NCBI GenBank assembly: GCA_964187785.1
Contig: OZ076409.1
Span: forward strand, 15,254,001-15,318,000
Reading direction: 5' to 3'
Length of the DNA: 64,000 bases
Source: Amphiscolops sp. MND2022
Lineage: Eukaryota
Shown: piece by piece, positions 39,403 through 63,237 of the stretch
Numbering within the stretch: position 1 is the stretch's first letter
How the letters are laid out: each line of letters opens with the position of its first letter
Notes under the pieces: model-generated
Told to the model about the DNA's origin: nothing
Database searches by the model: none
Seen by the model: the letters and a program-made list of their open reading frames with translations, nothing else
Made by a program: the position numbers and the translations under genes

Positions 39403-39972
39403 CGCCATTTGTATCAAAAACGTGGCTTAACTTCGGTGACAAATTTGCAAAGTGAGTCAATATGAAAAGATAGCAAAAATCAGACGAAGCCGTTAAAAAG
39501 AACGTCCAAAAAAACAATTATGCTGGAGTTTCGGCCACCATCAACTGAATAATCAATGAGTCGAGGCATTTTTTCATTTTGTCATTAAATGTGGATTAAC
39601 GTCAGTGACAGCTTTGCAAAAAGAGTCGAAAGTGAAAGATAACAAAAACTAGACAACTCCATTGGAAGGAAGGCCTTGAATTACCCCTAAAAGGTTTTTT
39701 ATACTCCAGGGTGGCTGTTTGATAGTACAATAGTTTTCATTTTTACTCAAACCCACCTAATTTATTCAGTGAAAATTTTTGTAATTTAGACAAACTTTTG
39801 TTTTTTTATTGTTTTTTTTCTAATCTTTTTAGTCATGATTTTAGTCAAACGTTTGAAACGTTGCCGTTCATCAAGAAATGTCTCTCAAAACAAGTTGTTG
39901 ACTGGTAATGGTGGATTAGTTATATTATTTAGTTAGTCAGTTATTTTTGCCTTTACCCTAATTGTTGTGATA

Positions 39973-42337
39973 CACAAGGCGCTATGCTGTCAAAGTGAAT
40001 TCTCTCCAATCTCTTGCTTTTGTGTGAATTTTGCATTGAACGAATTGAAACAAATTATGCTCAAATTGCTACTGAAAAACCACCAAAAAAGCAAATTTCT
40101 AACCACTTTTTGTTAAGTTTGTCTTACGAATTGCCGAAGAACCTTGAAAGATTGTAAATTAGTTAACCAACACGGAGAAAAGTGTTGAAGTTACCATATA
40201 CAAATACCCTAGTTGAGACTGCTTGAACTTCTTACATGCTGCAGGACTGCACGCAGGGTAATTTTTTATAAAACCTGGAAAATTCAGGAAGCATCCGGCG
40301 GTAAATCTTGTAGAATTAGACTGCATTTTCCACTACTGCAATTAAATTTGAAAATATTTCCCGCTTCTTTTCGGATAAGATCACGTTGTATTCACATTTC
40401 ATTATCTCAACTACTCATCTGATTTAATCACCGCTTCTCAAATAGAACACTGAAGATGACGCTAGTTTGTTATTTACATTGTGAATGAAGTTATTTTGCA
40501 TTAAAATGTCGGCAAAATTTTTGACGTCTCAGCTGCATTTAAAATTAGAACTGATGCATAATAAAAGTTGCAGAACTTAACGACCGGAAATTGCCGCCAA
40601 AACTTTGATGATTCGTTCAAGCAGCTTGAGAAAAGTTGATGACAACAGGGAAATAGTAACGCATTAAAGTCTCCGTAGGAGTTTTAGAAAATCATTTAAA
40701 AAGTTGGTGGCAACTTTGAAGAACATGTAAAAAGTTCAAGCAAGTTCAACAAGGGTATACAACCCTCAGAACAAAAAAGGAAATTCAAATTTCTCTAACT
40801 GTTTTTGCCCTGCCTATCTTCGAAAACAAGCCCAAACATTATTATCGAGCGGCATTACCATGGCGGGAAAAACAATTACTCCTTACTCAATTTACGACAT
40901 TTGCAAAACTGAAGCGGGTTACCCCAAAAAGTTGAGAGTGTCTTTCCGAAATTTACCATATTTCTTACCAAGAGGAAAGATACTTCAATCCTAATTTCAT
41001 TCAATTTGAAAAAAATTTCATCAGAAACATCGCTTTCCAAATAGAGGCCGTTTCTTACAGGAATTGCCAGAGCAGAAGGAATTATTGGCACATTGGATGA
41101 AAAAAAAACGATTGAAAGAATGGGCTAAAAATGCAATCTTACTAATATTTGACAGCAATGATGCATTTTTCCAATGCCACTGACCAGCTTCACAATCAAA
41201 CAGAGGCTAGATAGCAATTACGAAGCAGACATTTTTTCCCAGCAAAGATGCACTGAACAAAGAAAAGTCAGAAAATGCCAACGTTGTTGCCGAGAAAAGT
41301 GCCCCAGAATATGTAATAGAAGTGGTGACAGGAAATGCCCAATGTGAAATAAATTTCAAGAAAATGCAGACACAAAAGGCGACCTGGCTCCAATTATTCA
41401 GTGTGATAAAAAAAACAGCAATACAAAGGAGGATAAGGAGACAGAACCTGCCAAGAAAGCAAAACAATCTGAAAAACCAGCATACTATGTAGACAGTATC
41501 AAACGAAAAATCTTTGGTGAAGACGACACGATCAAAGCGTACCCTGAAGCTCAAAACTTGATAGATGAAAGACATAATATCAGAATTGAAGAAGACAACC
41601 AAAAATCAACGAACGAAGTGCTCTATGTAGAGCAGTTATCTATTGAAGGACACGAAACTTTGTTTGAAAACTGTACAGTTTGTTATGATGAAACTTTCAT
41701 TGAATCATAATAAATTAGAATTGAAGAACAAGTGTTCTGCTGTTTTAAATGACGAGAGGCTCACTCTCATTGCTGCTAACATTCATGATGATATCAAGAA
41801 AGTTTATACGCTTCCGACCTGAAAAAAGCACATTTTTAAAACTTTCAAATCCAAGTTTTTCATACGTGTAAAATAGTGCCATACCTCTTAATGAGGTGGT
41901 ACAGTGCACGCAAACTTACCACCATAGTACAAACTTTTGCCATTTGTACTATGAGTGAAACGTAAAAAAATTTCAAAATGTTTTTGAGACAAAACTACGT
42001 TATTTGAACCGCAGACCCTTATTGCACATGAATTTTAATGTACTGTTCCCATTTTCTGGAAGTCTCTTGAACAGCATTCAACGCTCTTAAAACAAGGAAA
42101 ACTTCGAACTCTAGAACTATCTCCTTCCAGGAGCTTTCCAAGAAAAAAATTTGTTTCTTCCTTCATATAAATACATCAAAATCATTCAGCAACCAAGCAT
42201 CTGATACTACCACTTTATGCATTTACTCAATTCATTGAATACATCATAATGCAGTGCTATTTACCACCTGTTAAACTTTATACTTACTATAAAAACTCTT
42301 GATTTATAAAGGCAAATTTTCAATTTACTCCATTAAA
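39973..42337 (+). mobile_element. ORF1-only (HAL1-like) non-LTR element inserted in the SL exon
   Basis: Flanked by 18-bp direct repeats of SL nt 1-18 (39955-39972, 42338-42355); decayed ORF1/RRM-like text LLSSGITMAGKTITP...LRVSFRNLP (~40840-40960); no RT motif seen. Confidence 0.65.
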
Positions 42338-42440
42338 AGCCCAATTGTTGTGATAAACTTAATATGTAGGTAAGTATTCTAATCATATTGATAACTTTCA
42401 TCTCAAAGAAGACTGCGAAAGTAACAAGCTAGTCTGCACT
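42338..42440 (+). pseudogene. SL RNA copy with the Sm region deleted
   Basis: Exon 42338-42369 and GTAAGT present; Sm-site segment missing. Confidence 0.65.
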
Positions 42441-42538
42441 AACCTAAAAGTTACGCTTATTTCGACCGCGAAAATTTTCGTAACATTGTAGGTACCTTTG
42501 TTGTTAAGCAAGAAAAGCTACTTGATTCCACAGTGCTC

Positions 42539-42607
42539 GGCTACGACCATACCATGTTGAATGCAACGGTTCACGATCAACCACCGAAGTCAAACAACAT
42601 AGGGTCT
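42539..42607 (+). pseudogene. 5' part of a 5S rRNA gene split by BEL/Pao insertion
   Basis: 5S nt ~1-69; continues at 50953. Confidence 0.88.
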
Positions 42608-43394
42608 TGTAACGGCTGCTTGATCCCTTCACTTGACCAAACTTTACGCCGCCCTGAGTTCGGTGATCGGCACTGCGGATCGTTTCCGAACAGTGCTTGC
42701 TTCTTTTATTGAAAGGACTCTATCTTGACTTAGTAGGATCTAATGATCTCGAATTGCACTTCTTCCTTGTCTCTTAACACGTCCAAATCTCCACAAGTTG
42801 AGAGTAACTAACTTAGTCGTCCCAAGTCTTTGGCGAAAAGACGAAAAGAGGTGAAGAAATGAATTGAGAAAATGTGTTGTCTCGAGACCCGACTTTAATA
42901 CAGCTTTCCAATCAAGTTGTGCCCATCTAGTAATAGTATACATATCGTTTACAAATATTCGATAAATATGAGTTGAAATATGAAGTATAAAAAATGACAT
43001 TTAAAGCATAATATGAAGTTATTGGCTAAGTAAACAAACTATATGGTGGTTCTGACATGATTTTTAGGTAGACTAGAAAGTGTATAACAGTGTTTACATT
43101 TTTGGGACAATGACCTTGTATATCGCACATGCGAAGGGTAAAGGGGTTATAGTGGGTGAATGACCTTGAAAATTAGCCGATGTGTCCATGTTAGGTCGTT
43201 GCATATGTGTGCCAAGTTTCGTGGCTCTACGATTTTTAGTTGTCGAGAAAATCCCAACAGGGGGGAGGTTTCCATTTGGTCCACCTTGACTTTTCATCGA
43301 AATTTCATCTAAGTTATAAGGTGTTTAAGTTCTTGTTTCTCAACTAGCATGTTCCAAATCGAATTTCTCTGCTTTCTGATGACTAGCGCCAACA
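42608..43394 (-). repeat. BEL 3' LTR
   Basis: Direct repeat of 50105-50952 with a ~60-bp deletion; the pol ORF ends inside it. Confidence 0.92.
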
Positions 43395-46300
43395 TTGCCG
43401 GCCCTGTTTTTCTCCCGAAAAACACTTTCAAAGAACAGGGGTGTCAGTTCCACTACTGGTATTTTGAATTCGCCAGCTTTTGTCTTAGCTTTTGATCTGA
43501 CACTGCAATCGCTTCCTTCTTGTACTTCGAATACTCTCGCCATCTTGTTTTTAGACTGCTTCACATTTTCATCCACAACCCAAACCAAATCATTTACTCT
43601 GAGTTGCCTCACACAATCTTTGTTCCATTTATTACGCACGTTCCATTCCGAGAGATATTCCATTCCATTCCGTTCCATGGTCCAGATCATATCTGAATAT
43701 GCTTGCGACACTCTGAATACGCGTCTCAAGTCCGTGTAGCGTTGAGCATCTGTTTGGAAAGGTGTCGCTAAATTTGCTCTTCCCAATAAGAAATGATTTG
43801 GTGTCAAAGCTTTCAGGTCATCTGAATCGTCACTAACACTTGTCAGTGGTCTAGCGTTCAACGTCTGCTCTACTAAGCACATAGTTGTTATGAGAACGTC
43901 GTCTCTCAAGGATCGTCCATCGAGTACAGCTATCATAGCTTTTTTACAACTTCGAACCAATCGTTTCCAGATTCCTCCAAAATGAGGGGCTCCAGGAGGG
44001 TTGAAATTCCACTTGTCATCCTTTTGAGCTAGAGACGTCTCAAAGGCTCACTGATTCCATGCATTTATACAATCTCTCATTTCGTTGGCTGCACCCACAA
44101 AGTTCGTCCCATTATTGCTCAAAATTGTAGCAGGTTTGCCTCTCTGGGCAATAAACCGTGTGATAGCAGTTAAGCAGGTTTCTGCTTTCAAAGATCGGAC
44201 AACTTCGATGTGTACTGCTCTAGTCGTCAAACAGGTGAAGAGACAGCACCATCTCTTCATAGTCTTGCGCATAAATTTAACTTCAAACGGACCAAAATAT
44301 TCAACTCCAGTGTTGGTGTAGGAGAACACTCGTTCCTGCAATCTTTCTCGTGGTAAATCAGCCATAAATGGTTGACACACTCCCGCTTGTTACTTTCTAC
44401 ATTTAACACATTTCGCTTTGACGCTTCTCAGGGCGTTTCGCAATCCAATATTCCAGTATTCTTGAGTTAGAACTCTTCTGACGTATTCTGTGTCTTCATG
44501 AAATTTTGTTTGATGTGTATCTTCAATCAACTTGATGACAACATAATGCTTTGTTGACAACACGATTGGGTGTTTGATTACATAACTTGACTTTGAATGT
44601 TGCAGTCGACCTTGTAGTCGTAGCAAACCATTTTCGTCCAGAAACGGCGATAATTTATTCAACTGATCTGAAACCGACAACGGCTGCCTTTTGGAGATCT
44701 TCTCGAGGGCATCATGAAAACTTTCCTGCTGACAACGCTTCAAAATTGCCAGTTTTGCCGCATTGAGTTCTTCAACTGCCAGAATTCCTTCGAATTTCTT
44801 TTCCCTCCATCTAAGGCAGTATGACAGCACTCGAATCGTTTTCTTGAAAGACCCAAATCTTTCCCTTTTGAATGCGGGTTCCATTACCGCAGCTTCCATG
44901 ACTGGTTCAGGCTCTTCTCGTATGCTAAATTGCAATTTTTCAGTCACCTTAGGCCAGGCGTCTTCTGTCTCGGTGAGTCACGCCGGCCCTGTGAGCCACT
45001 CACTTTCACTTTTTTCAACTGTCGTTCCTCGAGTTCCAATGTCAGCAGGATTCAGTTTTGCTTCACGATGCCGCCATAGTTGAATTTTCGAGATTTTCAG
45101 CAACGCGGTTTGCCACAAAGACCAGTTGTTTGTTGTTGCTTGCTTGAAGCCATTGTAGGACCGTTGTTGAATCTGTCCAATGTATAATTCGGTCTAATTC
45201 AATATCCAAATTCAATTCCAAAACAAGCTCTCGCAGTCCTACTCCAAAAACTGCTGCCTGCATGCATCTCCAACTTAGCCACTGTCATGTTTCGTATTGA
45301 GGCTAACTCTACATTTTCCGATCACAAAAGCGATTTCGCCATTTTCTTGCTTTCTCAAATAAGCAACCATACGCATTGCTTCCAACGAAGCGTCTGAGAA
45401 GACATGTAGATCTGCTTTGTTCACACCTGACTCAAAATATGTTCTTTTGAGTGGCATTTGGTTCACATGTATCATCTCTGATGCCCATCTCTTGAATTCA
45501 TGTCGATTTTTTTCATTCAGTTCTTTATCCCACGACTCTCCGTTCTCCTTCCATATCATTTTCAGTAGCAGTCGCTTTCTTATGGTGAAAGGAGACACTA
45601 TTCCCAGAGGGTCGAATACAGCTGAAACATGAGATAACACCGCCCTCTGCGTTATCTTCACCGGTATCTCTTTCTGCATGCCTCTACAGACTTCCAGATT
45701 GTCTGCGTCAACGTTCCATTGCAGTCCGACAATTGATGGAGAAGTCGGCTCAGCTTCAAAGGTTTTACTACAAAACGGTGACTTGTCTGCTTGGTCGATA
45801 TACATCATAGTCTGTTCGCAGTTGCTAATCCATTTTGTTAAGTGAAAGCGTCCCGTTGCCAACATCGCTCTTAACAATTTGTAGATTTCAATAGCCTGCT
45901 CCACAATGGGAACAGACTTGACAAAGTCATCCATATAGATGGTTCGCCTTATCAGTTTGGTAATACATGGGGACTCCTGTGTGCTATCTCTTGCAACTTG
46001 TTGCAGTGCATAATTGGCGCAAGTTTTGACTCCGAAGATATGTCTTCCATATTCATACACATTTACGGGTTCGTTTGGATTGTCTCTCCATAGAAATTTC
46101 AACACTTTACAATCTTCTGGTGGTACTTTCACTCGGAGGAAAAATAGCTGCAATGTTAGCAGTGATGGCGATCTTTTGTTCTCTAAACCTGAAGAATGTT
46201 CCAATCAGATTCTGCAGTAGGTCCGGCCCTGTCAAGAGGTTATCGTTCAGGGAAACTCAACGGAAGTTTGATGCTGCGTTGCATACTCGCCTCACCTTTC

Positions 46301-49300
46301 CTGTTTTTTTTTGGAGTTTTTACTGGGTGATGTGGAACATACCACTGTCTTTCCAATTTTGTAGCTTCTAACTCTTCTTGATTCAGGATTCTGACGAATC
46401 CCTTTTCAACATCTTCTTTGATAGAGTCTTGATAGAGTGTCTTCAACTCCGGTTTCTTTTCAAGTCTATACTCCAACGATTTCAAATGGCTCAATGCAGA
46501 AGAGTAATTGTTCGGCAAGATGGGGTCATTCCTTTTCCAGAGAAGGCCAACTTCGAATCTTTCACCATCAAACTTTGTGGTTTGTTCTAGCATCTGCAAC
46601 GCTTTCTAATCGTCCCTGGACCTTCGAGATACATCACAACGGGATGCATAGGCTTCAATGTCCCACCAAGTTTTAATCTGTTCTGCCAACACGTCATCTT
46701 CAGAAGCTGTTACGCAAGATGCAGGCATCTGCACATCTTCTTGCTGTGAAAGTGGTCCACAGAGAGTCCATCCAAGTTTCGTTTTCACTGCCCACGTCTC
46801 ATCATTCGTGCCGCTTTTATATTCTTCAGGCCAATGTATATGTTAGAAAATCTGTCCCAATATCCTTTTTACATCTTTGAGTTTCAATGTTTCTTCGCTT
46901 AGCACTGACAAATGAGGATAGGCATATTTGAGCTCCCGATAGTCGTATATCTTTGATCCGACGTCTATGTTTGCGTGCGTGTAGACTGTCATGTGATGTG
47001 TGTTGCTCCTTGCCTTCCCACGAATTCCCACGGTGGGTCGTTCACATTTCACTTCATTTGTCCCATGCATTCCAGCCACACTCAGATCAACTTATTGACC
47101 GTGAGCATTTAATTTGTCAGCTAATTCCTTGTTTATGAACGATAGGCTCGCTCCAGAGTCACACAGCGCCAAAGTTGATTCTTGTTTTTTCCCAATTTGC
47201 ACGATGACGGGTACAACAGGCAGTATTCCACGGCTTTTCAGCAAGCAAAATGCTGAATTTGCCTCCGTTTTCTGCTGTGGGTCTTCCGATCCACTTTCTT
47301 TCTGCCGTTCATTCGCCTCGCGATGTAGCAATCGATGATGCCGCCTGCTACTACTTTTGACTCCACACGCTTTGTAAGTGAAATCTTTCACCACATGTTT
47401 TCGAGCCAAGCAACCAAAGCAGAAATTCAATTCGTTGGCTTTTTCATATCGTGCTTGACAAGTCATCTTCAGAAACTTCTCGCATTTCCCCAAAGGACGT
47501 TTACCATCTTTCAATGGACAATCATGACCAGTCTTCTTGTTGGGGCTATCGTCAGCAAAGGTTGAGAACGTAGAGTGGTTTGGCTTATCTTTACGTGTCC
47601 ATTTCGATTTGTCTGCGTTGGAATTGCCTGTCATGAGAACATCTTGCTTCATTGCTGCTATCTCTTGCAACCATGCGTTGAACGCTTCCAGCCTCATGTA
47701 GTAGCTGGCATTTTGTCTCGTGTAAGTCAGCTATTTTGTTTTCATGTTCAATGGCGGTTTTCTGGTCGCACTACTCAGGACGTCTTCTGACTGCAAGTCT
47801 CCAACATAGTTCATCTGCGTCAGAACTTGTACAAAACTTTAAACTATTCTTGAGTATTAGACCAATGCTACAGAGTGGTACGCTTTCACTAGTGGAAAGG
47901 TGTAAATTCGTCTCCGTTGTGCGTTAGCTACAACTTGTGGTCTCGCAAAGTGCGCACTCAAGGTATTCCACGCAACATCATACAAGTCTCCAGTGTAGCC
48001 TAGTCCAGCTATTACTTCCTTTGCCTTTCCAGTGACCAGCGTTTTGAGGTGATTCATCTTCAGACTTGTGTCAATGTCCGCAGTATGTACAGTCGAGAGG
48101 AACAACCCTGACCACTCGGGCCATTCCAATGGGTCACCTGAGAATTCTGCTAACTTCAGTTTTGGGAGACGGGCTGGTAGACTCATGTTTTCAATACTTG
48201 TGGGTCCGAAATGACTATGTGGGGGTGCAGTGAGGCTAACAGGGGGTGAAACATGTGGCGTTACCGTACCATTTCTCACATTGTTATTCGCTGTTGGCTG
48301 ATTCGGAAGTAAATCATTTCCAAACTGAACATGTTGTGGCGCAGCCCTCTTCAGCGTTACATGAGCTACCTTCGGGACAAAGAGATTACCCGAGTTGCCC
48401 ACGTTTGCTACTGTTGGCTGTGCCATCTTACCAGCTGGTTGAAACAACTTCGTTGTATGCGGCAATGCACCAGGTTGTTGTTGCATGGGTACGCTGGCTA
48501 GGGCGATTCTGCATACATCATTCCCATTCTTCGTTAACTTATCATCAACTTCGATTTGATCAAGCCAAGAAGGTACCTTTTCAAACGAATCGCAATAGAT
48601 GGGTACTGGGGAGCAACTTGTATTTGCTCGGCTACTTCCCGCTTGAGCTATTTCTTTTTCCTTTTCTGAGATTTGTAAGCCTCTTGCCTTTTCCTCTTGG
48701 AGTTTAGCGCATTCTCTAGTTCGTCTGTGGGTTTATCCATTTCCTCATGTTTCTTTCGGATTTCTTTGCAGCTAGTTGTTCATCAATTTCTTCTTGTTTC
48801 TTCATTGCTTCCAGTTCTAGGAGCATCACTTGCTTTGTAGTAGTTGACTTCGAACTAACTGATGTTCAGTTGCCTCTTGAATGTGCCTTGCTTGCACACT
48901 GATCTCTTTCTTCAGGTAGCGAATTCACCTCATTACCACAACGATTCACAAAGGAATAGGGTCCATCGGTACCTTGTGCCACTTCTTCATTCGCATTCTT
49001 CTGAGGAGAAGTGTCGCGGGACTTTAGTTGTTGCTCTTGCTAATTCACCCTAGCACGGCCATGATTCCCTCCATACGATGCAACTCACTGTAGATTGAAG
49101 TATCTCCACTGTCTTTCAACAACTCATCCAACTCGGCCACAATTTTATCTCTCCTTTTGAGAGTTTCTTCGTTTGTTTCTACCAATGCTTTGTAATCCTC
49201 TGAGTTGCAAAGAGTTTCCCGATTTTTATTGATTTCATCTCCGTTTTTTTGAAACATTTCATCACATTTCTCTTTGGAGTTTTGAAGTTGTAGGAACTCC

Positions 49301-50104
49301 TTCAACTGTCCATCATTCTTTAGGCTCCTCATCATTGTGAGCACCTGACCAATGTTTTTATGTCGTGTTTCCAAGGAATCTAATTCATTCCGATATTTGC
49401 AGAATCGGTCGGCTTTACTATCCGACCATTCTGGCTGATACTTGGCTTTCAAGAGTGCTGTGTTCGCCGCGACGAGTCTCTTCCATCTGGGCAGTAGGTC
49501 TTGTCGGCTCGGTAGAAGGTCTGCGAGTTTCTCCTTCGTCACGTCTGCTTTGCGTAGCTCAGCATGTATTTCATCCATTTTTGTCTCAAAGTTTTGAATT
49601 GCTCTCATGTTGCTCTCCCATTGTGGCTTGTCCATAGAACTCTTGAAATGGTTTTCAATTCTTTTGTAATCAATTTTCTTAGGTTCAGCCGTTTTGAACT
49701 AGCTCAAAACCCCAGAGTACACTAAAAGAACCAAAGAGTCCACATTTTGCTGTGAATACAATTCTCAACAAGCCGATGAAGTTGCCCAAAACCCCAGTGT
49801 ACACTATATACCCAAGAGCTCCAGTAATACCACTTCTAATACAATATCCCAGAGCCTGCAGAAGTAGCCCAAACCCCATAGTACACTAAACACAGAGGAG
49901 AGCCCAGATGTGACCACTTTGCTGCACACACAGTTTTGCAAAGATCACCACCAGTCGTCGTTCACTGTACACGTTCACTTGTTGGCACGGTGCTTGTCTG
50001 GCTGTGTAGCAATCAGACAATCTTCCAGTTGTCCGTCCAAATGATGATGTCCGCGCAATTGATTATGTCTGCCCAATTGATGATGTCCGGGTCGGCGGAC
50101 CAAA

Positions 50105-50952
50105 TGTAACGGCTGCTTGATCCCTTCACTTGACCAAACTTTACGCCGCCCTGAATTCGGTGCTCGGCACTGCGGATCGTTACCGAACACTGCTTGCTTA
50201 GATTAAAAGGACTGTATCTTGACTTAATAGGATCCAATGATCCCGAATTGCTTTTCTTCCTTGTCTCTTAACACGTCCAACTCTCCACAAGTTGAGATAA
50301 ACTAACTTAGTTGCCCCAAAGTCTTTGGCGAAAAGTCGAAAGGTTGTGAAGAAATGAATTGAGAATATGCGTGGTCCTGAGACCCGACTTTAATACATCT
50401 TTCCAATCAATTTGTGCCTATCTAATAATGGTATACATATTGTTTACAATTATTCGATAAATAGGAGTTGAAATATGAGGTATAAATAAATGACATTTAA
50501 AGCATAATATGAAGTTGTTGGCTAAGTAAACAAACTATGTGGTGGTTCTGACATGATTATAAGGTAAGCTAGAAAGTATGTTTACACTATATAAAGATCA
50601 TTAATTTCAACAGAGTTACATTCTAATGTGGTCATATAGATAAATAACAGTGTTTACATTTTTGGCACAATGACGTTGAATATCGCACAAGTGAAGGGTA
50701 AAGGGGGTTAAATTGGGTGAGTGACCTTGAAATTTAGCCGGTTTGTCCGTGTTAGGTCGTTGCATATGTGTGCCAAGTTTCGTGGCTCTACGACTTTTAG
50801 TTGTCGAGAAAATCCCGACTGGGAGGTTTCGAGTTGCTCCCCCTTGACTTTTCATCAAAATTGCATCTAAGGTTAAAAGTGTTTAAGTTCTTGTTTCTCA
50901 ACTAGCATGTTCCAAATCGAGTTTCTCTGCTTTCTGATGACTGGCGTCAACA
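50105..50952 (-). repeat. BEL 5' LTR
   Basis: Direct repeat of 42608-43394, followed on the minus strand by the PBS. Confidence 0.92.
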
Positions 50953-51008: not shown

Positions 51009-51189
51009 TTCTGTCAAAAACGTGGTTTAACTTCTGTGACAGTTCTTCAAAATGGGTCAAAGTGAAAAGATTGCAGAAAACAGACAACGCCATTGGAAAG
51101 AATGTTCAAAAACCCCCCTGCTAAAGTTTTTTACGCTATCAATTGAATATTCCTTGAGTTAGATTTTTTTTAAACTCTAAATCTTCACG

Positions 51190-52805
51190 TATTCACTTGT
51201 TCAGCATCTTTTCAGTTGATAAGTGATTCCAACGCCCTTTTAACCCCTGTCGTGGAACAAAAAGAGAGCCATCTCCTGCTACGACGCTCGCTGGGTAAGG
51301 GGTTTTTGCACTATTCTGCTCGTGTGTGGTTGACCAAAGCAAGTTTTCCTAAAAAAGTGAGAGCATTGTCCCCCAATTTGGCCTGAGGACCAAATTGAAG
51401 CTTCCTTGGCTGGTAGCAGTCCTCAAAAAGCTATCAGTTTTAACGACGTTTCATGACCGTGTAAAGCGTTGCTTGCTCGTTTTACTCTAAACACGATTCA
51501 ACTTTTTCTGCCCCTTTGATGCTCTTGAAGCTATGTAATCCTCCGCCCTATTTACTTCGTTACCGGTTTACCTATTCATTATCGAGAGAAAACGTTGAAA
51601 AGAAAGACAAAATATCCAAAAAACCGCAAGACAAAAACAAAATATGTCAACTCTCTTCAAGAACTTTCACTGGACGGAATCGATGAAAACTCAACGGAGA
51701 ATCGATCTGAAAAACTTCCTGAACCAATCGCGATCCACCAAAAAGTTGAGAAAACCAAAATCTTGAAGCAATGAATTTTAGCAGATTAGTAACGAACAAG
51801 AATTACGAGCTTAAACACGAAGATGTTCAACAGTCTTAAAAATGAAAATTGTTCCCCGTTGAGGAAAGGCTTTTTTACCGATAGCGCTGCTCTGAAAACG
51901 AATTGAAAAGTCATACAAAGACATCCTCAGTGTCTTCCATCCCCAGCACAGCGAAATGATTACCATTTCGAGAATAACCAAGAAATTCGAAGAAAAAATC
52001 CACAAGTTTTACAAGTAATCGCCCCAGTCGAAGCAGAAGAAGACGTTGCGCGCATTAAATTAAATGAACTGAAAAACATGAATCAGACCGTCCCCTTGAC
52101 AGCTAAAGATACGTGGATGGTGAACAAGGTGCACGACATCAGAATAAACAACCTGCCAGCACTTTGCGACGATAACCAGCTAATAGAACTACTGCAGATC
52201 CCAGACTTTGCGGAGCTAGGTGAAATCCAACGAGAACGACAAAGGACGTAACAAAGAGGAACGAGAGCGCTGAGAAATTTGGTCGAAGTCAAGTGCATTT
52301 TCAGACAGCGTTTTCGGGTGCGAGCTTCCATTTTTTGCCAGCATTCCTGCTCTGTATCAATGCCAAAAAAATAAAGACGAGAAGAAGCAACGCTACAGAG
52401 AACACAATTATGACTGATGTAGAATTAACCGAAAGCGGAAACGGAATATGAGGAAAAGAATTTACGAAGTGCGGAGGATGGAAAAAGCAGCACTCATACA
52501 GACTCTTCAAATAGGTCTGATACAGAAGATGAAGAGCGAAAAAAGCAACTGCAGGCCCAATAACGACAAACATGGAGCAAGACATGGGTACTTGTGATTG
52601 GAAAACAGTAACTACAAGGTTACGGATTGGAATTGAAGTGCAACTGAAGAAAAATCGAGGACCAACTCCTCCATCAGGAACCGCAAATGTAGAAAGCGAA
52701 AAAAATCTAGAAACAAACAAAAAAACTCTCGAAAGAAGTCAATGGAGGTGCCTCAATGAAACCTGTCACATTAAAACATTGAACCTGTCACATTGAATCC
52801 TCAAT
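51190..52805 (+). mobile_element. Decayed ORF1-like (gag-like) non-LTR element at the strand-switch point of the array
   Basis: IRINNLPALCDDNQLIELLQIP..GEIQRE (~52140-52235); repeated 3' tail (AACCTGTCACATT x2). The 5' boundary is approximate and no TSD was found. Confidence 0.45.
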
Positions 52806-52827
52806 TAAACCACATTTCTGACAAAAA

Positions 52828-53166: not shown

Positions 53167-53334
53167 TCATGTACATTTAAAAAGGGAGGCCGAACAAATT
53201 CGCTGATTGGTTGAGATACGCTCGGTGATACGCGCTGCTGCAATACAGTTCAAAAGAAGATTCCGAGATGAGCTGTGAGAAAATGTGTTGCTGAATTTCG
53301 AAATAGACGTTTCAGAATCTCCAACTCTCATCAA

Positions 53335-56300
53335 CAGTGGATATCGTAGAGGTTGCGTGTTAGACTCTCAAACCAAAATCTTGAGTTTGATTCTCGCCAT
53401 CGATCTTTTTTCAAAAAACGTCAGCATGAACAGTCTTTTAAAGCGTGAACAGACTTTGGCCTTTCTTTTCCTGGATCACTCAAACGTCAAGACTGTCAAT
53501 GCTTTTAGAAACCAAAATCCGTGTGTTGTCGGAAAAGAGGCGTCCACTATCATGGAGTTTGAATCAACAACCGATAGCGTAGAGGTTGCGTATCAGATTC
53601 TCATTCCAGTGTCTTGAGTTCGAATCCCTCTGTCAACATGTTTTCCAAAGTTTTACTTCTGATTTTGTAATGCTAAGTTCACTATCACATAGCTGCAATC
53701 AACTGTGGATGGTGCAGAGGTCGTGTAACTATCTTTTAAACAGCGTGAACAGTCTTTTAAAAGCATTGGTGTTCGTCTTTTTTCTTAATGGTGCGCTTGC
53801 AACTACTGTTCAGCAAGAGATCGTGGCCTAGAGGTTGCGTTGGTTGTCAGGTTCGTCGGGTGTTATTCTGGTAGCTTTGGGTTCGGTCCCCGGAAATGAC
53901 ATGGTTCAGCACTTGAATTGATAGTGTTATGGCTTAAACCCAACTTGATTGTTCATTTCGACACATACCGTATAGAGGACTCTAAGTTCGTTCATTATTC
54001 GAATACGAATGCTTACTTTTGGAAGCGGCAAAATTTTTAACATAAAGATTTTTGAACTCCTTCCAATAACGTTGTCCATTTTTTCACATCTTTTCAACAG
54101 TCAATGGCGTAGTGGTTGCGCGTTTGATTTCCATTCCAATGTCTTGAGTTCGATTCCCTCAGTCTTTTTGTGAAAATTTGTTAGCGTGGACAGTCGTTCA
54201 AAAGCACTGGAATATTCCATTTTCTTAAAAGTGCGCCTAAAACCACTGTTTCGCAAGATATCGTGGCCTAGAGGTTGCGTTGGTGGTTAGATTTGGTATA
54301 GCGTTTTCTGGTATCTTTGGGTTCGGTCCTCTGGGAAGGAATTTGTTCCGCACTTGAATTGATAGAGTGTTTTTGCTTACACCCAACTTAGTTGTTTAGT
54401 TCGACAAATACCGAATATAGCATTCTGAATTCGTCCAAAATTTGAATTAGAATGCTTACTTTGGAAGCGGCAAATTTTTCAACATAGGGATTTTTGGACT
54501 CTTTCCAATAACGTTGTACATTTTTTCACATTTTTTCAACAGTTAATGGCGTAGTGGTTGCGTGTTGAATTTCCAGTCCATTGTCTTGAGTTCGATTCCC
54601 TCAATCAATGTTTTCAAAACGCTGTCAGCGTGGACAGTCTTTCAAAAGCGCTGGAATTTTCTTATCTCTTAGTAGTGCGCCTAAAACCACTGTTCCGCCA
54701 GATATCGTGGCCCGAAATTGTTTACGTTGGTGGATAGGGTCGTTAGAGTTTTTTTCAACAGTTAATGGCGTAGTGGTTGCGTGTTAGATTTCCATTCCAA
54801 TGTCTTGAGATCGATTCCCTCAATCAAAACTTCTTTAAAAACGTTGTCAGCGTGGACAGTCTTTCAAAAGCACTGGATTCTTCCTAACTCTTAGTGGTGC
54901 GCCTAAAACCACTGTTTCGCAAGATATTATGGCCTAGTGGTTTTCGTTGGTGGTTAGGTTTGGTATAGCGCTGTTCTGGTATCTTTGGGTTCGGTCCCCG
55001 GGGATGGAACTTGTTCCGCACTTGAATTGATAGAGTGTTATTGCTTACACACAACGTGGTTGTTTACTTCGACACATACCGAATATAGCATTCTGAATTC
55101 GTCCAAAATTTGAATTGGAAGCGGCAAAATTTTCAACATAGGGATTTTTGGACTCTTTCCAATAACGTTGTACATTTTTTCACATCTTTTCAACAGTCAA
55201 TGGCGTAGTGGTTGCGTGTTAATTTTCCAGTCCATTGTCTTGAGTTCGATTCCCTCAATCAATTTTTTAAAACGCTGTCAGCGTGGACAGTCTTTCAAAA
55301 GCGCTGGAATTTTCTTCTCTTAGTAGTGCGCCTAAAACCACTGTTCCGCAAGATATCGTGGCCTGAATTTATTTACGTTGGTGGATAGGATCGTTAAAGT
55401 TTTTATGTGTTTGTTGTCTAGCTTTGTCTTTTTCGAAGGCCATTGAAATCCATGAACTGCGTGTTTTCAGGTGAGATGTCCACCATCATCAACCGAGAGC
55501 GTAGAGGTTGCGTACTAGCCTCTCATTTCGATGTCTTGAGTTCGATTCTCTCTATCAACTTTGTTTTTCAAACTTCTAATTCCCTCACCTAATGGTAAGT
55601 TCACTATCACGTAGCTGCAACCAACAGTGGACGGTGCAGAGGTCGTGTACTAGGCTCTCATAACAACTGCTTGAGTTCGAAACCCTTTGTCAACTTTTGT
55701 TTTGCAACGAATGCGATTGTGATTCTGCAACATTGTCACCGAAGTTAAACCACGTTTTTTGATAAAATCGAAAAACCACAAATTTATAACAACATTAATT
55801 AACGACAAATGCAGATAACATTCATTGGAACGCAACATGAACTACAACATGGACGTTTTCGCGGACGACTTTTCTAAAGGCTGTGTCTTTTTTTCCAACT
55901 TTTCACATTGATCCACTTTGCAACACTGTCACCGAAGCTAAACCTCACTTTGTGACGAAGTGCATATAAGGAATAACACAGTGAAGATCCCAAAGAACGC
56001 GGCAAAACTTTCATCGTGGGGGTTTTTTGAACGCTTTTTCCAGTGGTGCTCTTCAATTTTTCACATCTTTTCATATTGACCCACTTTGCAAAACTGTCAC
56101 CAAAGTTAAACCACGTTTCTTGACAAAAAAGCTACAACAGCGTGGGAGTTTCAGTGGACGCTCTCTCTGAAGCTGTTGTCTATTGTGTTGCATCTTTTGA
56201 ACTTGACTAAGTTTCAAAGTAAGTTGAAACCTGTTGTGTTCACTATCATACATCATGTATTTGGAATCAAGAGTCAATGGTGCAGAGGTTGTGTACTAGG

Positions 56301-58070
56301 CTCTCATAACAATCGCTTGAGTTCGAAACCCTCAATCAACTTTTCTTTTTCGGAGTATGCCATCGTGATTCTGGAACATTGCCTGCAACGGTAAACCACG
56401 TTTTTTGACAAAGTCGATAAAGTCCACGAAATCAACTGCAGACATAATTCAGTCAACATTCCTTAGAAGGCAGAAACATTTCCAAAATTCGTAGTAGTTT
56501 GATTTTTTTCCAATGCCGTTATACATTCGTTTTCATTAAATAGGATCTTGATTCATTTGCAACAGTGTCACCAAAGTTAAACCACATTTTGTGGCGAAAT
56601 GAAATGATGTCATAACTTGGTGCGTATTCAATGGACCATGAGCGCAACCATCACAACGTCTGAATCAGCTGAAGTGTGACGATAAAGCCATTATTACAGA
56701 ACAAGCGTTCAAAGTGCCAGGTAGCACAGTAGTGAAATTGCTGCAGCAGAATTGAACTCTGAAGTGTGGTGTGATATTGAAGTGTTCAGCATATGAGCCA
56801 TAAATGATCGATTCCAAGTACCTCGCATTGTTTCATGCTACTTTTTGTTACTTGGATGAAGTTTCAGAATTGGGCGCCAGCCCGACGGCTGGCTTTGCTA
56901 CCACTCAGGCCTTTGAAAACTGGTTAAGGCCCAAAGATCCTGAGGGTCAAACTTGGTTATCCTCTTCTGTCGATTCCGCTTCTTTGGGGAGGCGCTTCTT
57001 GGGGAGAGGAATAGTCCAACACGGCTATAATACGTTGACTGCGCTTTCGTCTTGCTCTCTTTCGGACTCAAGGATCCTCAAGGGTGTCGGTTATTGGTTC
57101 GAGCGGAATCAATTTCATAGCTAGCAAATTATGTTTCTGAAGTTTTCAACGCGAGACTTAATTCATCCCCTCTGACTTTTCTGGGGCAGCTTCGAGTGAT
57201 TGGTTATACTCAAACATGTGTAGAGTCAAAAAAACTATATCCGAATAGATTTTTGTAATGAAGTGAATTCTTATATATCTGCGTACGTAAAGTCTGTGCT
57301 TATGTAAAGTCGGAAACAATAGACATACGGGCGATGCAAATTCGTTATGGCACAGGCGTTAACCACTATCACGGAGCTTGAATAAACAACCGATAGCGTA
57401 GAGGTGACGTATCAGGCTCTGCTTCCAATGTTTTCAGTTCGATCCCCTCTATCGATCCTTTTCTTTCAAATATTGCCAGCGTGAACATCTTTTCAAAAGC
57501 ACTGTTTTATTCTTTCTCTTAGTGGTTCGCTCACAACCACTCTTTTGCAAGATATTGTGGATTAGAGGTTACATTGGTGGACAGGTTCGTTAGAGTGTTG
57601 TTCTGGTAGCTTTGGGCTCGATCCTCGTGGTGGACTTGGATCCGGACTTGAGTTGATTGTTTGGTTTTCCTTCCATCCAACTTAGTTGATTAATTCGGCA
57701 TAGACCATCAAAGGCAAAAGTTGTTGAAATATTTAATACCAAAAATTCCTTTGGACTTTGGCCTTTCCTTTTCTGGATTGCTCAAACGTCAAGACTGAAA
57801 ATGCGTTTAGAAACCAAAATCCGTGTGTTTTCGAAAAAGAAGCGTCCACTATCACGGAGTTTGAATCAACAACCGATAGCGTAGAGGTTGCGTATCAGAC
57901 TCTCATTCCAATGTCATGAGTTCGAACCCCACTGTCAACATTGTTTTCCAAAGTTCTACTTCTGATTTTCTAATGCTAAGTTCACTATCACATAGCTGCA
58001 ATCAACTGCGGATGATGCAGAGGTTGTGTACTAGGCTCGCATAATAATCGCCTGAGTTCGAAACCCTTAG
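53335..58070 (+). repeat. Array of degenerate tRNA-like (A-box/B-box) cassettes inside the Helitron
   Basis: More than 15 units, e.g. 53575, 53820, 54103, 54260, 54545, 54765, 54928, 55200, 55495, 55630, 56278, 57393, 57555, 57877, 58013, each TRGCGTAGTGG-like ... GAGTTCGATTCC-like. Confidence 0.8.
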
Positions 58071-58279
58071 TCAACTTTTATTTTGCGAAGAATGCAATCG
58101 TGATTCTGCAACATTGTCACTGAAGTTAAACCATCTTTTTTGAAACAGTCGATGAACCACAAAAATATGACCAACCTAATTAACGGAACAAAGCAGATAA
58201 CATTTATTGGAAGGCAACATAACCTACCTCATGGTTAGGTATGATTTTACCTTTTATAAATTCTCAGGCCGATTTTTCG

Positions 58280-58824
58280 AATGCCGAAGCGCTGATAGAA
58301 CACTGGAAGTAGCGGACCAATGTAGATTTCCCGTGGAATATCTGAACACATTGAATCCATCTGGTCTTCCACCACATATGTTACAGCTGAAACCAGGTTG
58401 TTTGATCATTTTGCTGCGTAATCCTAACCCTATTGTCGGTGTGTGTAATGGGGCGTGGTTGATTCTAATCGCAATAAGCCGACACAGTTACCTCGAAGCT
58501 ACTTTGATTGGTCTAAACCTTTCTGGGTCAGACGTGTTGATACCACGTATCAATTTGACCACAGAACAAGTCTTCGACATGCCAGTAATTTGGGTTAGAA
58601 GACAATTTCCCATACGTCCCGCATTCGCAATGACAATCAACAAAAGTCAGGGTCAAACCTTTGACAAAGTTGGGTTGTACTTGGAAGAACCTGTATTTTC
58701 TCATGGTCAATTGTATGTTGTTTTATCCCGATGTTCATCTGCTGCCAACCTTAAAATATTTTTACCACCCAAAGATGATGGCACTTTTTGGACGAAAAAC
58801 GTAGTTGACAAAAAAAATTTTTGA
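58280..58824 (+). pseudogene. Helitron RepHel PIF1 helicase C-terminal fragment
   Basis: FPVEYLNTLNPSGLPPH, RRQFPIRPAFAMTINKSQGQT, VFSHGQLYVVLSR, TKNVV; no Rep domain or N-terminal helicase motifs. Confidence 0.9.
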
Positions 58825-59799
58825 GTATCAGTCCCTTTTAAATAGCACCCAAGCTAATCACTGGTAGTTTAGGGGAGTAAAATCAAAGGACAAGATTAGA
58901 TGTTTTGACAATCTAACACATGAATTTTGTGTTTTGTGCTCATCTTTTGTTTTGCAATCAACTTTTTTTGTGCTCTAATCAACAGTGGATAGCGTTGTGT
59001 TGTTCTGGTAGCTTTGTGTTCGAGCTCTAAGGTGGACTTCGATCCGCACTTGAGTTGATAGAGTCTTATGACTTCACCCAACTTGGTTGTTTAGTTTGAC
59101 AATTACCATACAAGGCAAAAGTCGTGGAACACTTTGATACCAATAATTTGAATGGATTTTGGGCTTTCCTTTTCTAGATAGCTCAAACGTCAAGACTCTA
59201 AATGCGTTTAGAAACCGAAAACCGGGTGTTTTCGGGAAAGAGATGTTCACAATCACGGATAACAGTTTGGAGTATAATCATCCACTTTTTGATACCTCAT
59301 ATCCATTAAACCTCTTTAATTAGTCGCCGTAGTCGGCAGCGGGTTTGCTAGTTAGGCTAAGAGAAAAGAGTCAATTTTTTGGAGGGCGAGACTCCTATCT
59401 GCGGTACTGAAGCCAACAACTTGTTTTGAGGGGAAATTATCATAAAAAGACAACGTTTCAAGTTTCTGACATCTGAGGAAACCAAAATATTTTAGAAAAT
59501 CTGTGCAAAAGCAAAATTTTGACTCCATTACGAAAATGTATGCTGAAAAGCATAAATTAGTAAGCTTAAAAATGAAATTTCATGTACTATCAAAAGTCGA
59601 CTAAGGAGTCTGAAAAACACGTTTTAGGGGTAATTTTGGGCCTTCTTTCCAATGCCGTTGTCCGTTTTTTTTGCTATATGTTCATTTTGACTCCTTTTGC
59701 AAAACTGCCACCGAAGTTAGAACACATTTTGTGAAAAGTGTAAAATGACATAAATCAATGAAAATTCAATTGATGGCGGCAAAAATTTCAGCATTGTCG

Positions 59800-60654
59800 T
59801 GTAACTAGGCTCTCATATTATTCGCTTGAGTTCGAAATTCCTAGTCAACTTTTATTTTGCGAAGAATGCAGACGTGATTCTGCAACATTGTCACTGCAGT
59901 TAAACTACGTTTTTGAAACAGCCGAATAACCACAAAATTTTGACAAACCTAATTAACGGTAAAAAGCAGATAACATTTATTGGAAGGCAACTTAACTTAC
60001 CTCATGGCTAGGTATGGTTTTACCTTTTATAAACTTTAAGGCCACTTTTTCGAATGCCGCAGCGCTGATAGAACACTGGAAGTAGCGGACCAAGGTAGAT
60101 TTCCCGTAGAATATCTCAACACATTGAATCCATCTGGTCTTCCACTACAAATGTTACAGCTGGAACTAGGTTGTTTGATCATTTTGCTGCGTAATCTTAA
60201 CCCATCTGTCGGTTTGTGTAACGGGGCGAGGTTGATTCTTAACGCAATAAGCAGACACAGTTACCTCGAAGCTACTTTGATTGGTGCAAACCTTTCTGGG
60301 TCAGACGTGTTTATACCACGTATCGATTTAACCACAGAACAAGACTTCGACATGCCAGTAAATTGGGCTAGAAGGCATTTTCCCATACGTCCCGCATTCG
60401 CAATGACAATCAACAAAAGTCACGGTCAATCTTTTGACAAAGTTGGGTTGTACTTGGAAGCACCTGTATTTTCTCTTAGTCAATTGTATATTGCTTTATC
60501 CCGATGTTCAACTGCTGCCAACCTTAAATTACATTTACCACCCAAAAATGATGGCACTTTCTGGACGGAAAACGTAGTTTACAAAGAAATTTTTTGAGCA
60601 TCAGTCTCTTTTAAAAAGCACCCAAGCTAATCACTGGTAGTTTAGGGTTTAATA
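59800..60654 (+). mobile_element. Second, 5'-truncated Helitron copy with PIF1 fragment (ORF 60124-60597)
   Basis: Duplicates ~58025-58875; ends with hairpin ACCCAAGCTA/TAGTTTAGGGT and ATAG, followed by TTAGGCT (SL nt 7-1). Confidence 0.78.
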
Positions 60655-60661
60655 GTTAGGC

Positions 60662-61220
60662 TAAGAGCAAAGAGTCAATTTTTTGTAGCGCGAGACTCCT
60701 ATCTGCGGTACTGACTTACCATTACCAGCCAACAACTTGTTTTGAGGGGAAATTCTCATAAAAAGACAACGTTTCGAGTTTCTGACATCTGATGAAACCA
60801 AAGTATTTTACAAAAACTGTGCAAAAGCAAAATTTTGACTCTATTACGAAAATGTATGCTGAAAAGCATAAATTGGTATGCTTAAAAATGAAATTTCATG
60901 TATTATCAAAAGTCGACTCAGGAGTCTGAACAACACGTTTTAGGGGTAATTTTGGGCCCTCTTTCCAGTGCCGTTGTCCGTATTTTGCTATCTGTTCATT
61001 TTGACTCCTTTTGCAAAACTGTCACCGAAGTTAAACCACATTTTGTGAAAAGTGTAAAAACGACATAACTCATTGAAAATTCATTTGATGGCGGCAAAAA
61101 TTTCAGCATGGGGGTTTTTTGGACGCTCTTACCAATGGCGTTGTCCGTTTTTTGCTATCTTTTCAATTTCACACAATTTGCAAAACTGTCACCAAAGTTA
61201 AACCACATTTCTGACAAAAA
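60662..61220 (-). repeat. Intergenic spacer of the SL/5S unit (copies at 59359-59795 partial, and 63205-63763)
   Basis: ~560-bp near-identical repeats with an internal ~170-bp subrepeat. Confidence 0.88.
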
Positions 61221-61339
61221 AGGCTACAACACCTGGTGTTCCCAAGCGGTCTCCCATCCAAGTACTAACCAGTCCCTATGTTGTTTATTTTCGGTGATCG
61301 GACAAGACCCGGTGCGTTCAACATGGTATGGTCGTAGCC
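61221..61339 (-). rRNA. 5S rRNA
   Basis: 119 nt with oligo-T terminator; a few substitutions. Confidence 0.95.
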
Positions 61340-61444
61340 GATCGTTGTAGAATCAGGTAGCTTTATATGCTTAACAACAAAATTACGTACAATGATACAA
61401 AAATTTTCTCGATCAAAATACGCGTAACTTTTAATTTAGTGCAG

Positions 61445-61567
61445 ACTAGCTTGTTCCTCGTTCGAAAATTGAGATTTAGACCACTTTTGCAGTCAGCTTT
61501 CAAATGAAACCTATCAATAGGGTTGGAATACTTACCTATTTAATAAGTTTATCATAATATTTAGGCT
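61445..61567 (-). ncRNA. Putative SL RNA gene copy (mutated)
   Basis: 32-nt exon 61567-61536, GTAAGT 61535-61530, Sm-like AATTTTCGA 61470-61462. The 3' end is approximate. Confidence 0.75.
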
Positions 61568-63186
61568 TTTGAAGACTATATTGAATGCTGAGGATATACA
61601 AGTACAAAGTAATGAAGTCTAAAGTATAGGTATAAATATCTGAGTATATGAGTAATTGAGGTATGTAAATGAATATGCTTGGTTACTTAATATCAGCGCC
61701 AAAATATTTGAGAGTAAATATAAAAAGCGCCAAATTTGAAATGAAGTTGGTATAATGTAGTTTGGAGAATGTATGAGAAGAGGTTGTTTGCTCCTGGAAG
61801 GAGTTTGTTTTGAAATTCAGTTTTTTTTGCACACAGTACTAGTAGTGTTTGAAAAGAATCGGGAATTGGGTTGGTTGGTGATGGGCATGTAAAGAAATAG
61901 GAATTCGAAAGTTCAGTCGAACAATGTCTGAATTTTTTCAGTTTTTGTTTTCATTGTATAAGTTTTCAATTGCTGTGAAAACTTGCACTTTTCTATTCTC
62001 CAATTTGATAGTGTAAACGTGGTGGTTTGTAGCGTCATAGAAAGGACCAAACTTTCGGATCATTGTGTAAAATTCAAAGTGAGAATATAAAACTGTGTTA
62101 GAGTCAGAATGTTTCCAGTTTGATTCAGATAAAAGATCTTCAATTTTTGTTTTCTTCAGTGGTTGCCCTAGTGAAAACGTCCCTTGAATTTTCTTTTCCT
62201 TGTCCAGTAAATTGATGTAACCAGACGTTTGCTGGGTTTTGATCATGTTCTTTTATAGCAGGTAATTCGTTGAAAATTGTTTCTGGTGCCAAAATTTTGT
62301 TTAGTTTCTTTTCCAAGAAAAAAGGCTATTCATGCTTTGCAGTTGACTGTTGATCAGTTGTTTGACTTTGGGAAATTTCTGCTGAGAATGTCCATTCAGT
62401 TGAGCGATGCATTAGTTCAGGTTTTTGCATAGGAAGTGTATCTTTTTTTTGAGTTGTCAATCCATGGTTCTTCAGTTTCTTCTACGTTGTTATTGCATTC
62501 CATTTCAGCACCATCATCGGCCTGCTTTGGCTTCTTTGAAATTGGTTCAGCATCATTTAAATATGACAATTCAGGTTCATTAGATATTGGCTCTGTTTCT
62601 GAAGGTTCCATAACGTAGTCTGTTGTTAACTTCTGGTTCTGAGATTTACTGTTTTTCCGTATCTGTTGTTCGTCTGGTAGTTGTTTTGGGCATCTTGATT
62701 GTTGATGAGCACTTGGAAGGTTCTCTCTGGCACATAAAAGGCAATCGATGAGTGGGAGACAGCAGCATTTGAAAACAATGCGACTGGATGTAAACGTTTT
62801 GTCATATGCATTATTAGCCCTGTTGCCTTATTACCTTTGTTGCGTAAAATTGTAGTTTTGAAAATGGTAATTTCATTGAAATTTAGTCGTTTTTTGACCG
62901 TAATAACAGCTTCCACAAACATTGAATCCAGTAATTTGATGTTTTTGAACATGTCAGATGTCAGGGGTAAAGCAAAGTTGGCAATAATTGGTTATTTGTC
63001 CATATTTGAGTTCGATTTCGATAAGCAAACAACTGCATTTTTGTAACAATTTTGTTCAACGCTTTCATTATGATGTTGATCGAGCTCATTCGTGTTCAAA
63101 TTAGTCATTACTTTTGCCACTTTTGTTGCAAAATTTGCAAGATGGCGCTGTGCAAACAAAGTTTGCAGGGTAACAGAATAACGCCG
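61568..63186 (-). mobile_element. ORF1-only (HAL1-like) non-LTR element inserted in the SL exon
   Basis: 18-bp direct repeats of SL nt 1-18 at 63187-63204 and 61550-61567; gag-type knuckle CLLCARENLPSAHQQSRC (~62743-62690); 5' end GGCGTTATTCTGT resembles GGCGCTATGCTGT of the 39973 element; no RT motif seen. Confidence 0.68.
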
Positions 63187-63237
63187 TATCACAACAATTA
63201 GGCTAAAAGCAAAGAGTCAATTTTTTGGAGCGCGAGA

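Follow-up and report, generated by a model that had tools for sequence, protein, structure and literature searches.

ORF1-only non-LTR elements at a single position of the spliced leader exon in an acoel genome, with L1-group elements as their likely partners

Two inserts in spliced leader (SL) genes of the acoel Amphiscolops sp. are confirmed as decayed copies from a non-LTR lineage that encodes ORF1 only. They lie in a 64,000-nucleotide stretch of contig OZ076409.1, hereafter the window, and are called E1 and E2. The lineage inserts behind nt 17 of the SL exon, in the SL/5S arrays. We think it probable that this lineage, of which E1 and E2 are dead copies, is long-lived, monophyletic and trans-mobilised by L1-group elements that encode APE and RT domains and have the same SL target. 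Target, duplication, partners, monophyly and conserved ORF are all observed; the cycle below is proposed. The SL exon matches that published for the acoel Symsagittifera roscoffensis in the available part of PMC9911081, which puts trans-splicing at about 30% of genes. Rfam has no match for the SL RNA of this genome.

A sequence-only reading of the window had described both inserts as sense to the SL gene, flanked by direct repeats and different in length and sequence. All of this stands; E1 and E2 share no BLASTN similarity. The proposed 18-bp duplication is reduced to 17 bp, i.e., SL nt 1–17, as the 18th base is an ambiguous A at −1 that may come from either the target or the element's A4 tail. 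The insert starts, 39,973 and 63,186, are retained, and the ends move by one base, from 42,337 to 42,338 and from 61,568 to 61,567.

E2 (61,567–63,186, minus strand, 1620 bp) belongs to family N1, with 92% and 81% identity over two parts, and carries a deletion and is frameshifted. It is short because about 345 bp (aa 94–208) of the 1983-bp family, which has an intact 506-aa ORF, are deleted; the junction is near 62,830. The predicted CX2CX8HX4C zinc knuckle is readable in the tblastn frame of E2 (approximately 62,690–62,743) and not in E1. The left duplication (63,187–63,203) is exact; the SL upstream region immediately before it is near-native and part of a repeat unit (63,204–64,000) that matches the 904-bp array unit at 97% identity and contains a 5S rRNA gene at 63,764–63,882. 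The other duplication copies in the window have one to three mismatches. The right copy of E2 (61,566–61,550) has three and begins a complete, promoterless SL exon (61,536–61,566), followed by SL intron, spacer and a 5S gene (61,221–61,339) that extend as far as another broken SL start, the next in line (60,662–61,535). E2 is present as four near-identical tandem copies, which indicates array duplication of a dead copy.

E1 (39,973–42,338, plus strand, 2366 bp) retains ORF remnants at 40,038–40,151 and 40,773–41,707, whose best protein match is family N7 (39–42%). Its 3′ half is 74% identical to copies in an SL array on C12, and it is matched by the C-terminal domain HMM described below (E = 4e-7). 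The length of E1 is due to a nested 553-bp MITE-like element (40,205–40,757), which has terminal inverted repeats and is dispersed at unrelated sites, with 6142 first-look candidates genome-wide. The left duplication (39,956–39,972) has one mismatch, with the ambiguous A at 39,955. The right duplication (42,339–42,355) begins a complete but degenerate promoterless exon (42,339–42,369), and the splice donor follows at 42,370. Full promoterless SL copies downstream, as first described, are found behind both inserts. In front of E2 the promoter-side consensus is kept at 97% identity; in front of E1 it has decayed.

A census of 577 kb of array regions delimited 99 inserts, not counting the second element type R6 and a short donor-site insert. 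Of 216 promoter-bearing SL genes, 88 are interrupted. ORF1-only elements, most with intact ORFs, make up 75 of the 99 inserts, and autonomous L1-group elements with APE and RT make up 23; these numbers are not counts of insertions, as tandem duplication, e.g., of the four E2 copies, inflates array copy numbers. The inserts fall into 15 clusters, across which a terminal motif is shared; the 23 autonomous inserts make up eight APE+RT clusters. The 17-bp flank is found in 71 of 75 ORF1-only inserts, and tabulating the flanks of E2-family copies, as had been suggested, gave the same 17 bp on all 47 delimited ones. Genome-wide, the SL 17-mer followed by a non-A base occurs 188 times, many of these in a separate CRE-like family, against 0 for a reversed control pattern, which excludes chance. 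Copies truncated at the 5′ end (65, 953, 2624 and 4472 bp, and about 1.7 kb) still have 16–18-bp flanks, indicating a true staggered cut. The A-run is exactly 4 in 93/99 inserts. Of 57 genome-wide tail matches, 53 are in SL arrays and four are off-array. Target specificity is strong, not absolute: besides these four matches, all four N6 copies found are off-array, as are four of the nine best matches of R1.

The proposed sequence-specific, non-autonomous ORF1-only family is upheld, by its presence in the arrays, by homology to autonomous ORF1 and by a tandem-RRM fold. The copies are not mostly at unrelated sites, the consensus is not non-coding, and an LTR or DNA-transposon (Dada-type) origin is rejected. 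Target-site duplication, 5′ truncation and the lack of LTRs and terminal inverted repeats are those of non-LTR elements that use target-primed reverse transcription (TPRT).

The autonomous elements in the same arrays are the likely partners. They have ORF1 and an ORF2 with N-terminal APE, RT and C-terminal zinc finger, as in the L1 group. Pfam identifies RVT_1 (PF00078) and Exo_endo_phos (PF03372, above cut-off in R3), with a weak match to PF13966. Their best PDB match is human L1 ORF2p (E = 1e-56, versus 5e-21 for R2). Tails are held in common by N3 and R0 (43 bp at 100%) and by N1 and R5 (35 bp at 94%), and one head motif occurs in autonomous and non-autonomous families alike. Tails, the sole guide to which partner serves which ORF1-only family, suggest pairings that are complicated by the swapping of tails between families. 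The window itself holds two decayed halves of R1-type elements, both on the plus strand: the 3′ half of an APE-RT element, absent from the first reading (37,018–38,601, ending before an SL copy at 38,632), and a 5′ half with UTR and ORF1, behind an SL/5S unit fragment (51,178–52,766).

We propose the following cycle. The partner APE would make two nicks, one between SL −1 and +1 on the bottom strand and one behind nt 16–17 on the top strand. As an inserted copy sits behind the snRNA-type SL promoter, its RNA would start at SL +1 and comprise SL nt 1–17, the element and read-through into the regenerated SL gene. The downstream SL sequence would pair with the nicked strand and prime reverse transcription exactly, which would account for the fixed A4 end and the missing poly(A) tail. 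Pairing between the SL head of the cDNA and the 17-nt overhang would make the 5′ junctions exact. Unequal exchange within the arrays would multiply live and dead copies alike. R2 and R1 are likewise co-transcribed with their rDNA target, need no promoter of their own and use target sequence on their RNA to guide precise junctions. They depend on Pol I rDNA transcription, whereas the acoel elements would use an snRNA-type promoter and have an RNA 5′ end that coincides with the host gene start.

Off-array copies bear on the promoter. The six full-length ones examined all begin with SL nt 1–16/17 (five exact, one degenerate). They sit at unrelated sites, lack promoter DNA and match the array sequence over no more than one base ahead of the SL start. 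R6 includes SL nt 1–28 within its own duplication. Among 20 off-array 3′ junctions, a set that leaves out two internal false tail matches, 19 start GCC and one GGCC. These starts and junctions point to an SL-promoter RNA primed through the downstream SL, and the starts lend indirect support to transcription of the elements from that promoter. The GCC could reflect endonuclease preference instead of RNA annealing. Trans-splicing as the source of the head is excluded by its 16–17 nt, as opposed to the 31-nt exon. The same elements and target might instead be served by internal promoters, or by long array read-through processed at SL +1, leaving the SL promoter unused. The shared head motif could be a promoter element, and 15 interrupted SL starts in the census lie behind another insert, i.e., in head-to-tail stacks. 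Still, we regard this as unlikely, as the off-array copies start at SL +1 and internal promoters would have to start exactly there in unrelated families.

The proteins of the ORF1-only lineages, of which there are at least eight, form one clade (97/95). Each element has a single ORF homologous to LINE ORF1, without ORF2, as in ORF1-present non-autonomous LINEs. ORFs are intact in 34/47 N1, 8/8 N2, 11/14 N3 and 3/3 N1c copies; hence the family is alive. The dN/dS between families, about 0.15–0.3 with dS saturated, indicates that the proteins are under purifying selection. They are only 18–20% identical to the partners' ORF1. The RRM-like segment first noticed is borne out by tandem-RRM fold matches (E ~ 2e-5), and Pfam gave no match above cut-off for the ORF1 proteins. 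Most families have a CCHC knuckle, lost in N4, N6 and N7. RRM plus CCHC knuckle is the type I ORF1p architecture, as defined in the available part of PMC5203782.

The ORF1-only proteins share a C-terminal domain of about 125 aa that the autonomous partners lack. Its predicted model (pLDDT 88, pTM 0.80) reached at best a VIA Z of 4.4 among 48,161 chains, with no Foldseek match at E ≤ 0.001 in PDB or BFVD and a blank Atlas search; these negative results do not prove a new fold. Searched with a profile of the domain, 1.84 billion representatives yielded 16 proteins and a larger set five, and all 19 distinct proteins match loci of this lineage (tblastn, 40–100%). We suggest that the element's own RNA is coated by the ORF1 protein, which has two RRMs, in most families a knuckle, an acidic linker and the private C-terminal domain, and that this domain most likely recruits the partner's ORF2/ORF1 particle, by analogy with proposals for HeT-A and HAL1.

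Strong conservation, the private domain and the 75 ORF1-only inserts versus 23 partners would also suit a decoy or domesticated protein, kept to restrain the autonomous elements or to serve the host and not for the mobility of its own RNA; Ag-Sponge, an ORF1-only CR1 derivative, is listed in the available part of PMC5786205. All intact genes seen, however, lie within mobile units with fresh duplications (N1 mean divergence is 1.1% over 42 full copies), new off-array insertions exist, and element-level selection accounts for the data without a host benefit, so that this role seems even less probable than internal promoters. Recombination within the arrays as the only means by which old passenger inserts spread, true of E2 itself and of duplicated array blocks, is very improbable. 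It is largely refuted by the copies with precise ends that are dispersed on C3, C6, C7 and C10; the 15 clusters, the differing 5′ truncation points, the intact ORFs and the stacks also speak against it.

The trans-mobilisation model can be extended, doubtfully, to an old, self-standing lineage with an acquired adaptor domain, a stretched SL RNA and a U2-targeting ancestor. If so, the C-terminal domain would be the adaptor through which SL-specific machinery of the L1 group is hijacked. The element RNA would run from the SL cap and first 17 nt through the element to a complete SL RNA that includes the splice donor and an Sm-like site. The cell could then treat it as an snRNP, and the whole element might even end up on host mRNAs as a giant leader. 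A switch from U2 (GGCTAA to GCCTAA) would be the origin of SL targeting, parallel to Utopia and NeSL but with the other endonuclease class.

SL targeting (CRE, NeSL) and ORF1-only elements (HAL1, HeT-A) are already known separately. HeT-A is confined to one kind of site, in head-to-tail stacks, and HAL1 ends in poly(A). HeT-A of Drosophila, mammalian HAL1 and Ag-Sponge are ORF1-present non-autonomous LINEs (available parts of PMC5786205 and PMC5753468), like the acoel lineage in having ORF1 only, LINE-like ends and a need for an autonomous LINE. In contrast, the acoel lineage targets a single nucleotide position of an snRNA-type gene and duplicates 17 bp there; it lacks a poly(A) tail and is one old clade with an extra domain, whereas HAL1s, in these sources, arose several times. 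HAL1 in the strict sense, i.e., a derivative of mammalian L1 with type II ORF1, is rejected on the type I ORF1 and the A-run of 4. CRE, SLACS and CZAR are trypanosomatid SL-gene non-LTR elements with a restriction-like endonuclease. With nematode NeSL, they share SL-gene specificity with the acoel elements, and NeSL, also with a restriction-like endonuclease, is thought to have switched from U2 to SL (available part of PMC4640811); the acoel genome likewise has a U2-targeting relative. The acoel partners differ from all of these in having APE, two ORFs and an ORF1-only satellite lineage, and identity with NeSL/CRE is rejected on the APE domain and an RT that resembles L1 far more than R2.

The Tx1 clade, including Keno, Kibi, Koshi and Tx1-Mar with SINEU, resembles the acoel elements in APE and RT of the L1 group, sequence-specific insertion in multicopy genes, tandem insertion around the duplication and non-autonomous riders on the same target; the available part of PMC4494074 names no SL target. 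APE with sequence-specific insertion, a Tx1 trait, is found in the acoel elements, which form their own RT clade in a FastTree tree of 104 rows (one per family, with the 50 most distant homologues thinned to about every second, and no labelled Tx1 reference). Behind Keno and Utopia, U2 picks up again at nt 39 in the text available; behind the acoel U2-targeting relative it does so at nt 19, and the duplication is 7 bp. This and the SL target exclude identity with Keno.

Our literature searches listed no APE-type SL-specific element, and Repbase or paper supplements might contain an SL-specific Tx1/L1 entry. SL genes would be an added target of APE-type site-specific retrotransposons. The deletable private domain offers a clean system for asking why ORF1-only elements keep their protein. 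With about 40% of sampled SL genes occupied in an animal trans-splicing about 30% of its genes (available part of PMC9911081), the arrays also present a tractable host–parasite conflict. Several intact elements have related enzymes and differing targets (two SL sites, U2 and unspecific), natural material for studying shifts in APE specificity and of interest for RNA-only site-specific gene insertion.

The window (G000:C1:15254001-15318000, in a genome of 1.07 Gb) contains decayed copies of a 904-bp repeat that pairs an SL RNA gene with a 5S rRNA gene. Its 31-nt spliced leader (SL) exon is the trans-splicing leader given for the acoel Symsagittifera roscoffensis (PMC9911081), which would make this species or a near relative the host. 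The sequence-only reading had placed two inserts at the SL site, with 18-bp duplications. Both inserts are real; the duplication is SL nt 1–17, and the extra A at −1 is assignable neither to the target nor to the tail. E1, the forward-strand insert (39973-42338, +), contains a nested 553-bp MITE-like element (40205-40757) for which there are thousands of genome-wide candidates. The ORF remnants of E1 are frameshifted and share about 39–42% identity with the ORF1-only family N7. The region upstream of E1 is decayed, and its closest DNA relatives, at 74% identity, lie in an SL array on contig C12. E2 (63186-61567, −) belongs to family N1, 1983 bp long with an intact 506-aa ORF, and carries a deletion; after its death E2 was quadrupled in tandem. 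E1 and E2 are themselves dead copies. Decayed halves of an autonomous element lie at 37018-38601 and 51178-52766.

A census across array regions of contigs C1, C12, C13, and C938, 577,006 bases in all, gave 216 SL starts with native upstream DNA, 88 of them interrupted. It delimited 99 inserts in 15 clusters: 75 ORF1-only copies (6 clusters), 23 two-ORF copies (8 clusters), and one 65-bp stub. Because array blocks have been duplicated in tandem, array counts exceed the number of insertion events. The flank is 17 bp in 71/75 ORF1-only copies, 16–18 bp in 17/23 autonomous copies, and 11–13 bp in the six copies of the autonomous family R3. Since 5′-truncated copies (n = 5) retain 16–18-bp flanks, the flanking repeat is a true staggered-cut duplication. 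Exactly four terminal A's (A4) end 93/99 inserts. The proposal of sequence-specific insertion is borne out genome-wide, where 53 of 57 matches to the N1-type tail pattern fall within SL arrays. The specificity is leaky: all four copies found of family N6 are off-array, as are 4 of the best 9 matches to R1, an autonomous family.

The ORF1-only coding content is likewise upheld, the protein aligning with the ORF1 of the autonomous partners at 18–20%, with 10 invariant columns. Its predicted structure comprises two RRM-like domains, a knuckle, a disordered linker, and a folded C-terminal domain. The latter, ~125 aa, is present in the ORF1-only families, E1 and E2 included, whereas across the loci searched it matched no autonomous element; its predicted model is confident (pLDDT 88) and found no fold match in structure searches. 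We infer a role for this extra domain in mobilisation. In the ORF1 tree, eight ORF1-only lineages group as a single clade (97/95), separate from 10 autonomous ORF1 rows. Codons compared between the families differ most at position 3 (dN/dS about 0.15–0.3, dS saturated), and most young copies keep the ORF. Therefore, the ORF1-only elements are a maintained lineage and not fresh deletion products. Three full-length proteins of the ORF1-only type, P0123, P0175, and P0179, whose highest identity to any locus compared is 43–81%, may represent further families or other acoel species.

The two-ORF partners encode an APE endonuclease, a reverse transcriptase (RT), and a C-terminal zinc finger, and among solved structures are closest to human L1 ORF2p (E = 1e-56, versus 5e-21 for R2). 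In the RT tree, six SL families group together (0.995), with dispersed poly(A)-tailed relatives as their sister group (0.935) and R3 and R6 placed apart. ORF1-only elements and partners have tails in common (43 bp at 100%, 35 bp at 94%), and the pairing of each ORF1-only family with the partner that serves it is one we infer. A second SL site, the splice donor, shows a 16-bp duplication and has two users. One is the autonomous APE-RT family R6 (L083:7208, L093:5628, L084:2080, L089:2366), headed by SL nt 1–28; the other is a non-coding insert of ~114 bp, seen at L063:6778 and at 10 further junctions, whose tail is R6-like and which probably rides on R6 in the manner of a SINE. A further relative, an intact two-ORF APE-RT element, targets U2 snRNA genes (L189/L174, G000:C5:28058700-28064700; L175) with a 7-bp duplication at U2 nt 19–25, whereas Keno and Utopia use nt 39 (PMC4640811).

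Off-array 3′ junctions start with GCC in 19 of 20 cases, against a composition expectation of about 0.006 per junction. An endonuclease preference alone could account for GCC; GCC junctions and the fixed A4 together fit priming by read-through SL sequence. Off-array 5′ ends were scored in ten copies whose 5′ side lies inside the sequence examined. Six are full-length, and all six start with SL nt 1–16/17 (five exact, one degenerate) amid unrelated flanks, without promoter DNA or a target-derived duplication; the remaining four lack the element's own head. One R6 copy, carrying SL nt 1–28 inside its own duplication, is a second case of an SL-headed copy. Trans-splicing is rejected as the source of the 16–17-nt heads, as it would add 31 nt; most likely, therefore, SL +1 is where the element RNA itself begins. 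The off-array SL heads, the GCC junctions, and the fixed A4 lead us to propose a cycle in which RNA would start from SL +1 and reverse transcription would then be primed through read-through SL sequence. The elements would be transcribed from the SL promoter and capped.

The ORF1-only way of working is like that of HeT-A/HAL1 (PMC5786205, PMC5753468), in their mode of insertion the partners resemble Tx1-like site-specific LINEs (PMC4494074), and the SL target is shared with NeSL and CRE, which are restriction-like-endonuclease families (PMC4640811). Membership of the acoel SL-targeting elements in NeSL, CRE, Keno, or strict HAL1 is rejected. No APE-type SL-specific element was found in searches of the openly accessible literature.

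A separate non-LTR family, dispersed on contigs C1–C6 (L109–L118, L122, L123, L126, L127), occupies unrelated sites, each copy being headed by a 31-nt SL exon that is complete but degenerate. Its copies represent retro-copies of trans-spliced RNA; by motif, we take its RT to be CRE-like.

Elsewhere in the window, a long insertion (42611-50489) interrupts a 5S gene, and its direct repeats of 174 nt (starting at 42821 and 50316), with integrase-like text recognized by eye, suggest an LTR element. Repeats of ~98 nt bearing tRNA-like motifs, intermixed with SL-spacer fragments, form a complex array at 53300-58200 that has no Rfam match at gathering score. In the interval 58137-60660, helicase-like text, read by eye as a Helitron-like candidate, comes after a broken SL start at 60662, with a 300-nt duplication (58137/59910). 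Outside the arrays, locus L129 (G000:C7:66667001-66672000) has a 3′ part of R1 stacked with an ORF1-only copy; an identical 6-bp sequence starting with GCC lies between the two and again after them.
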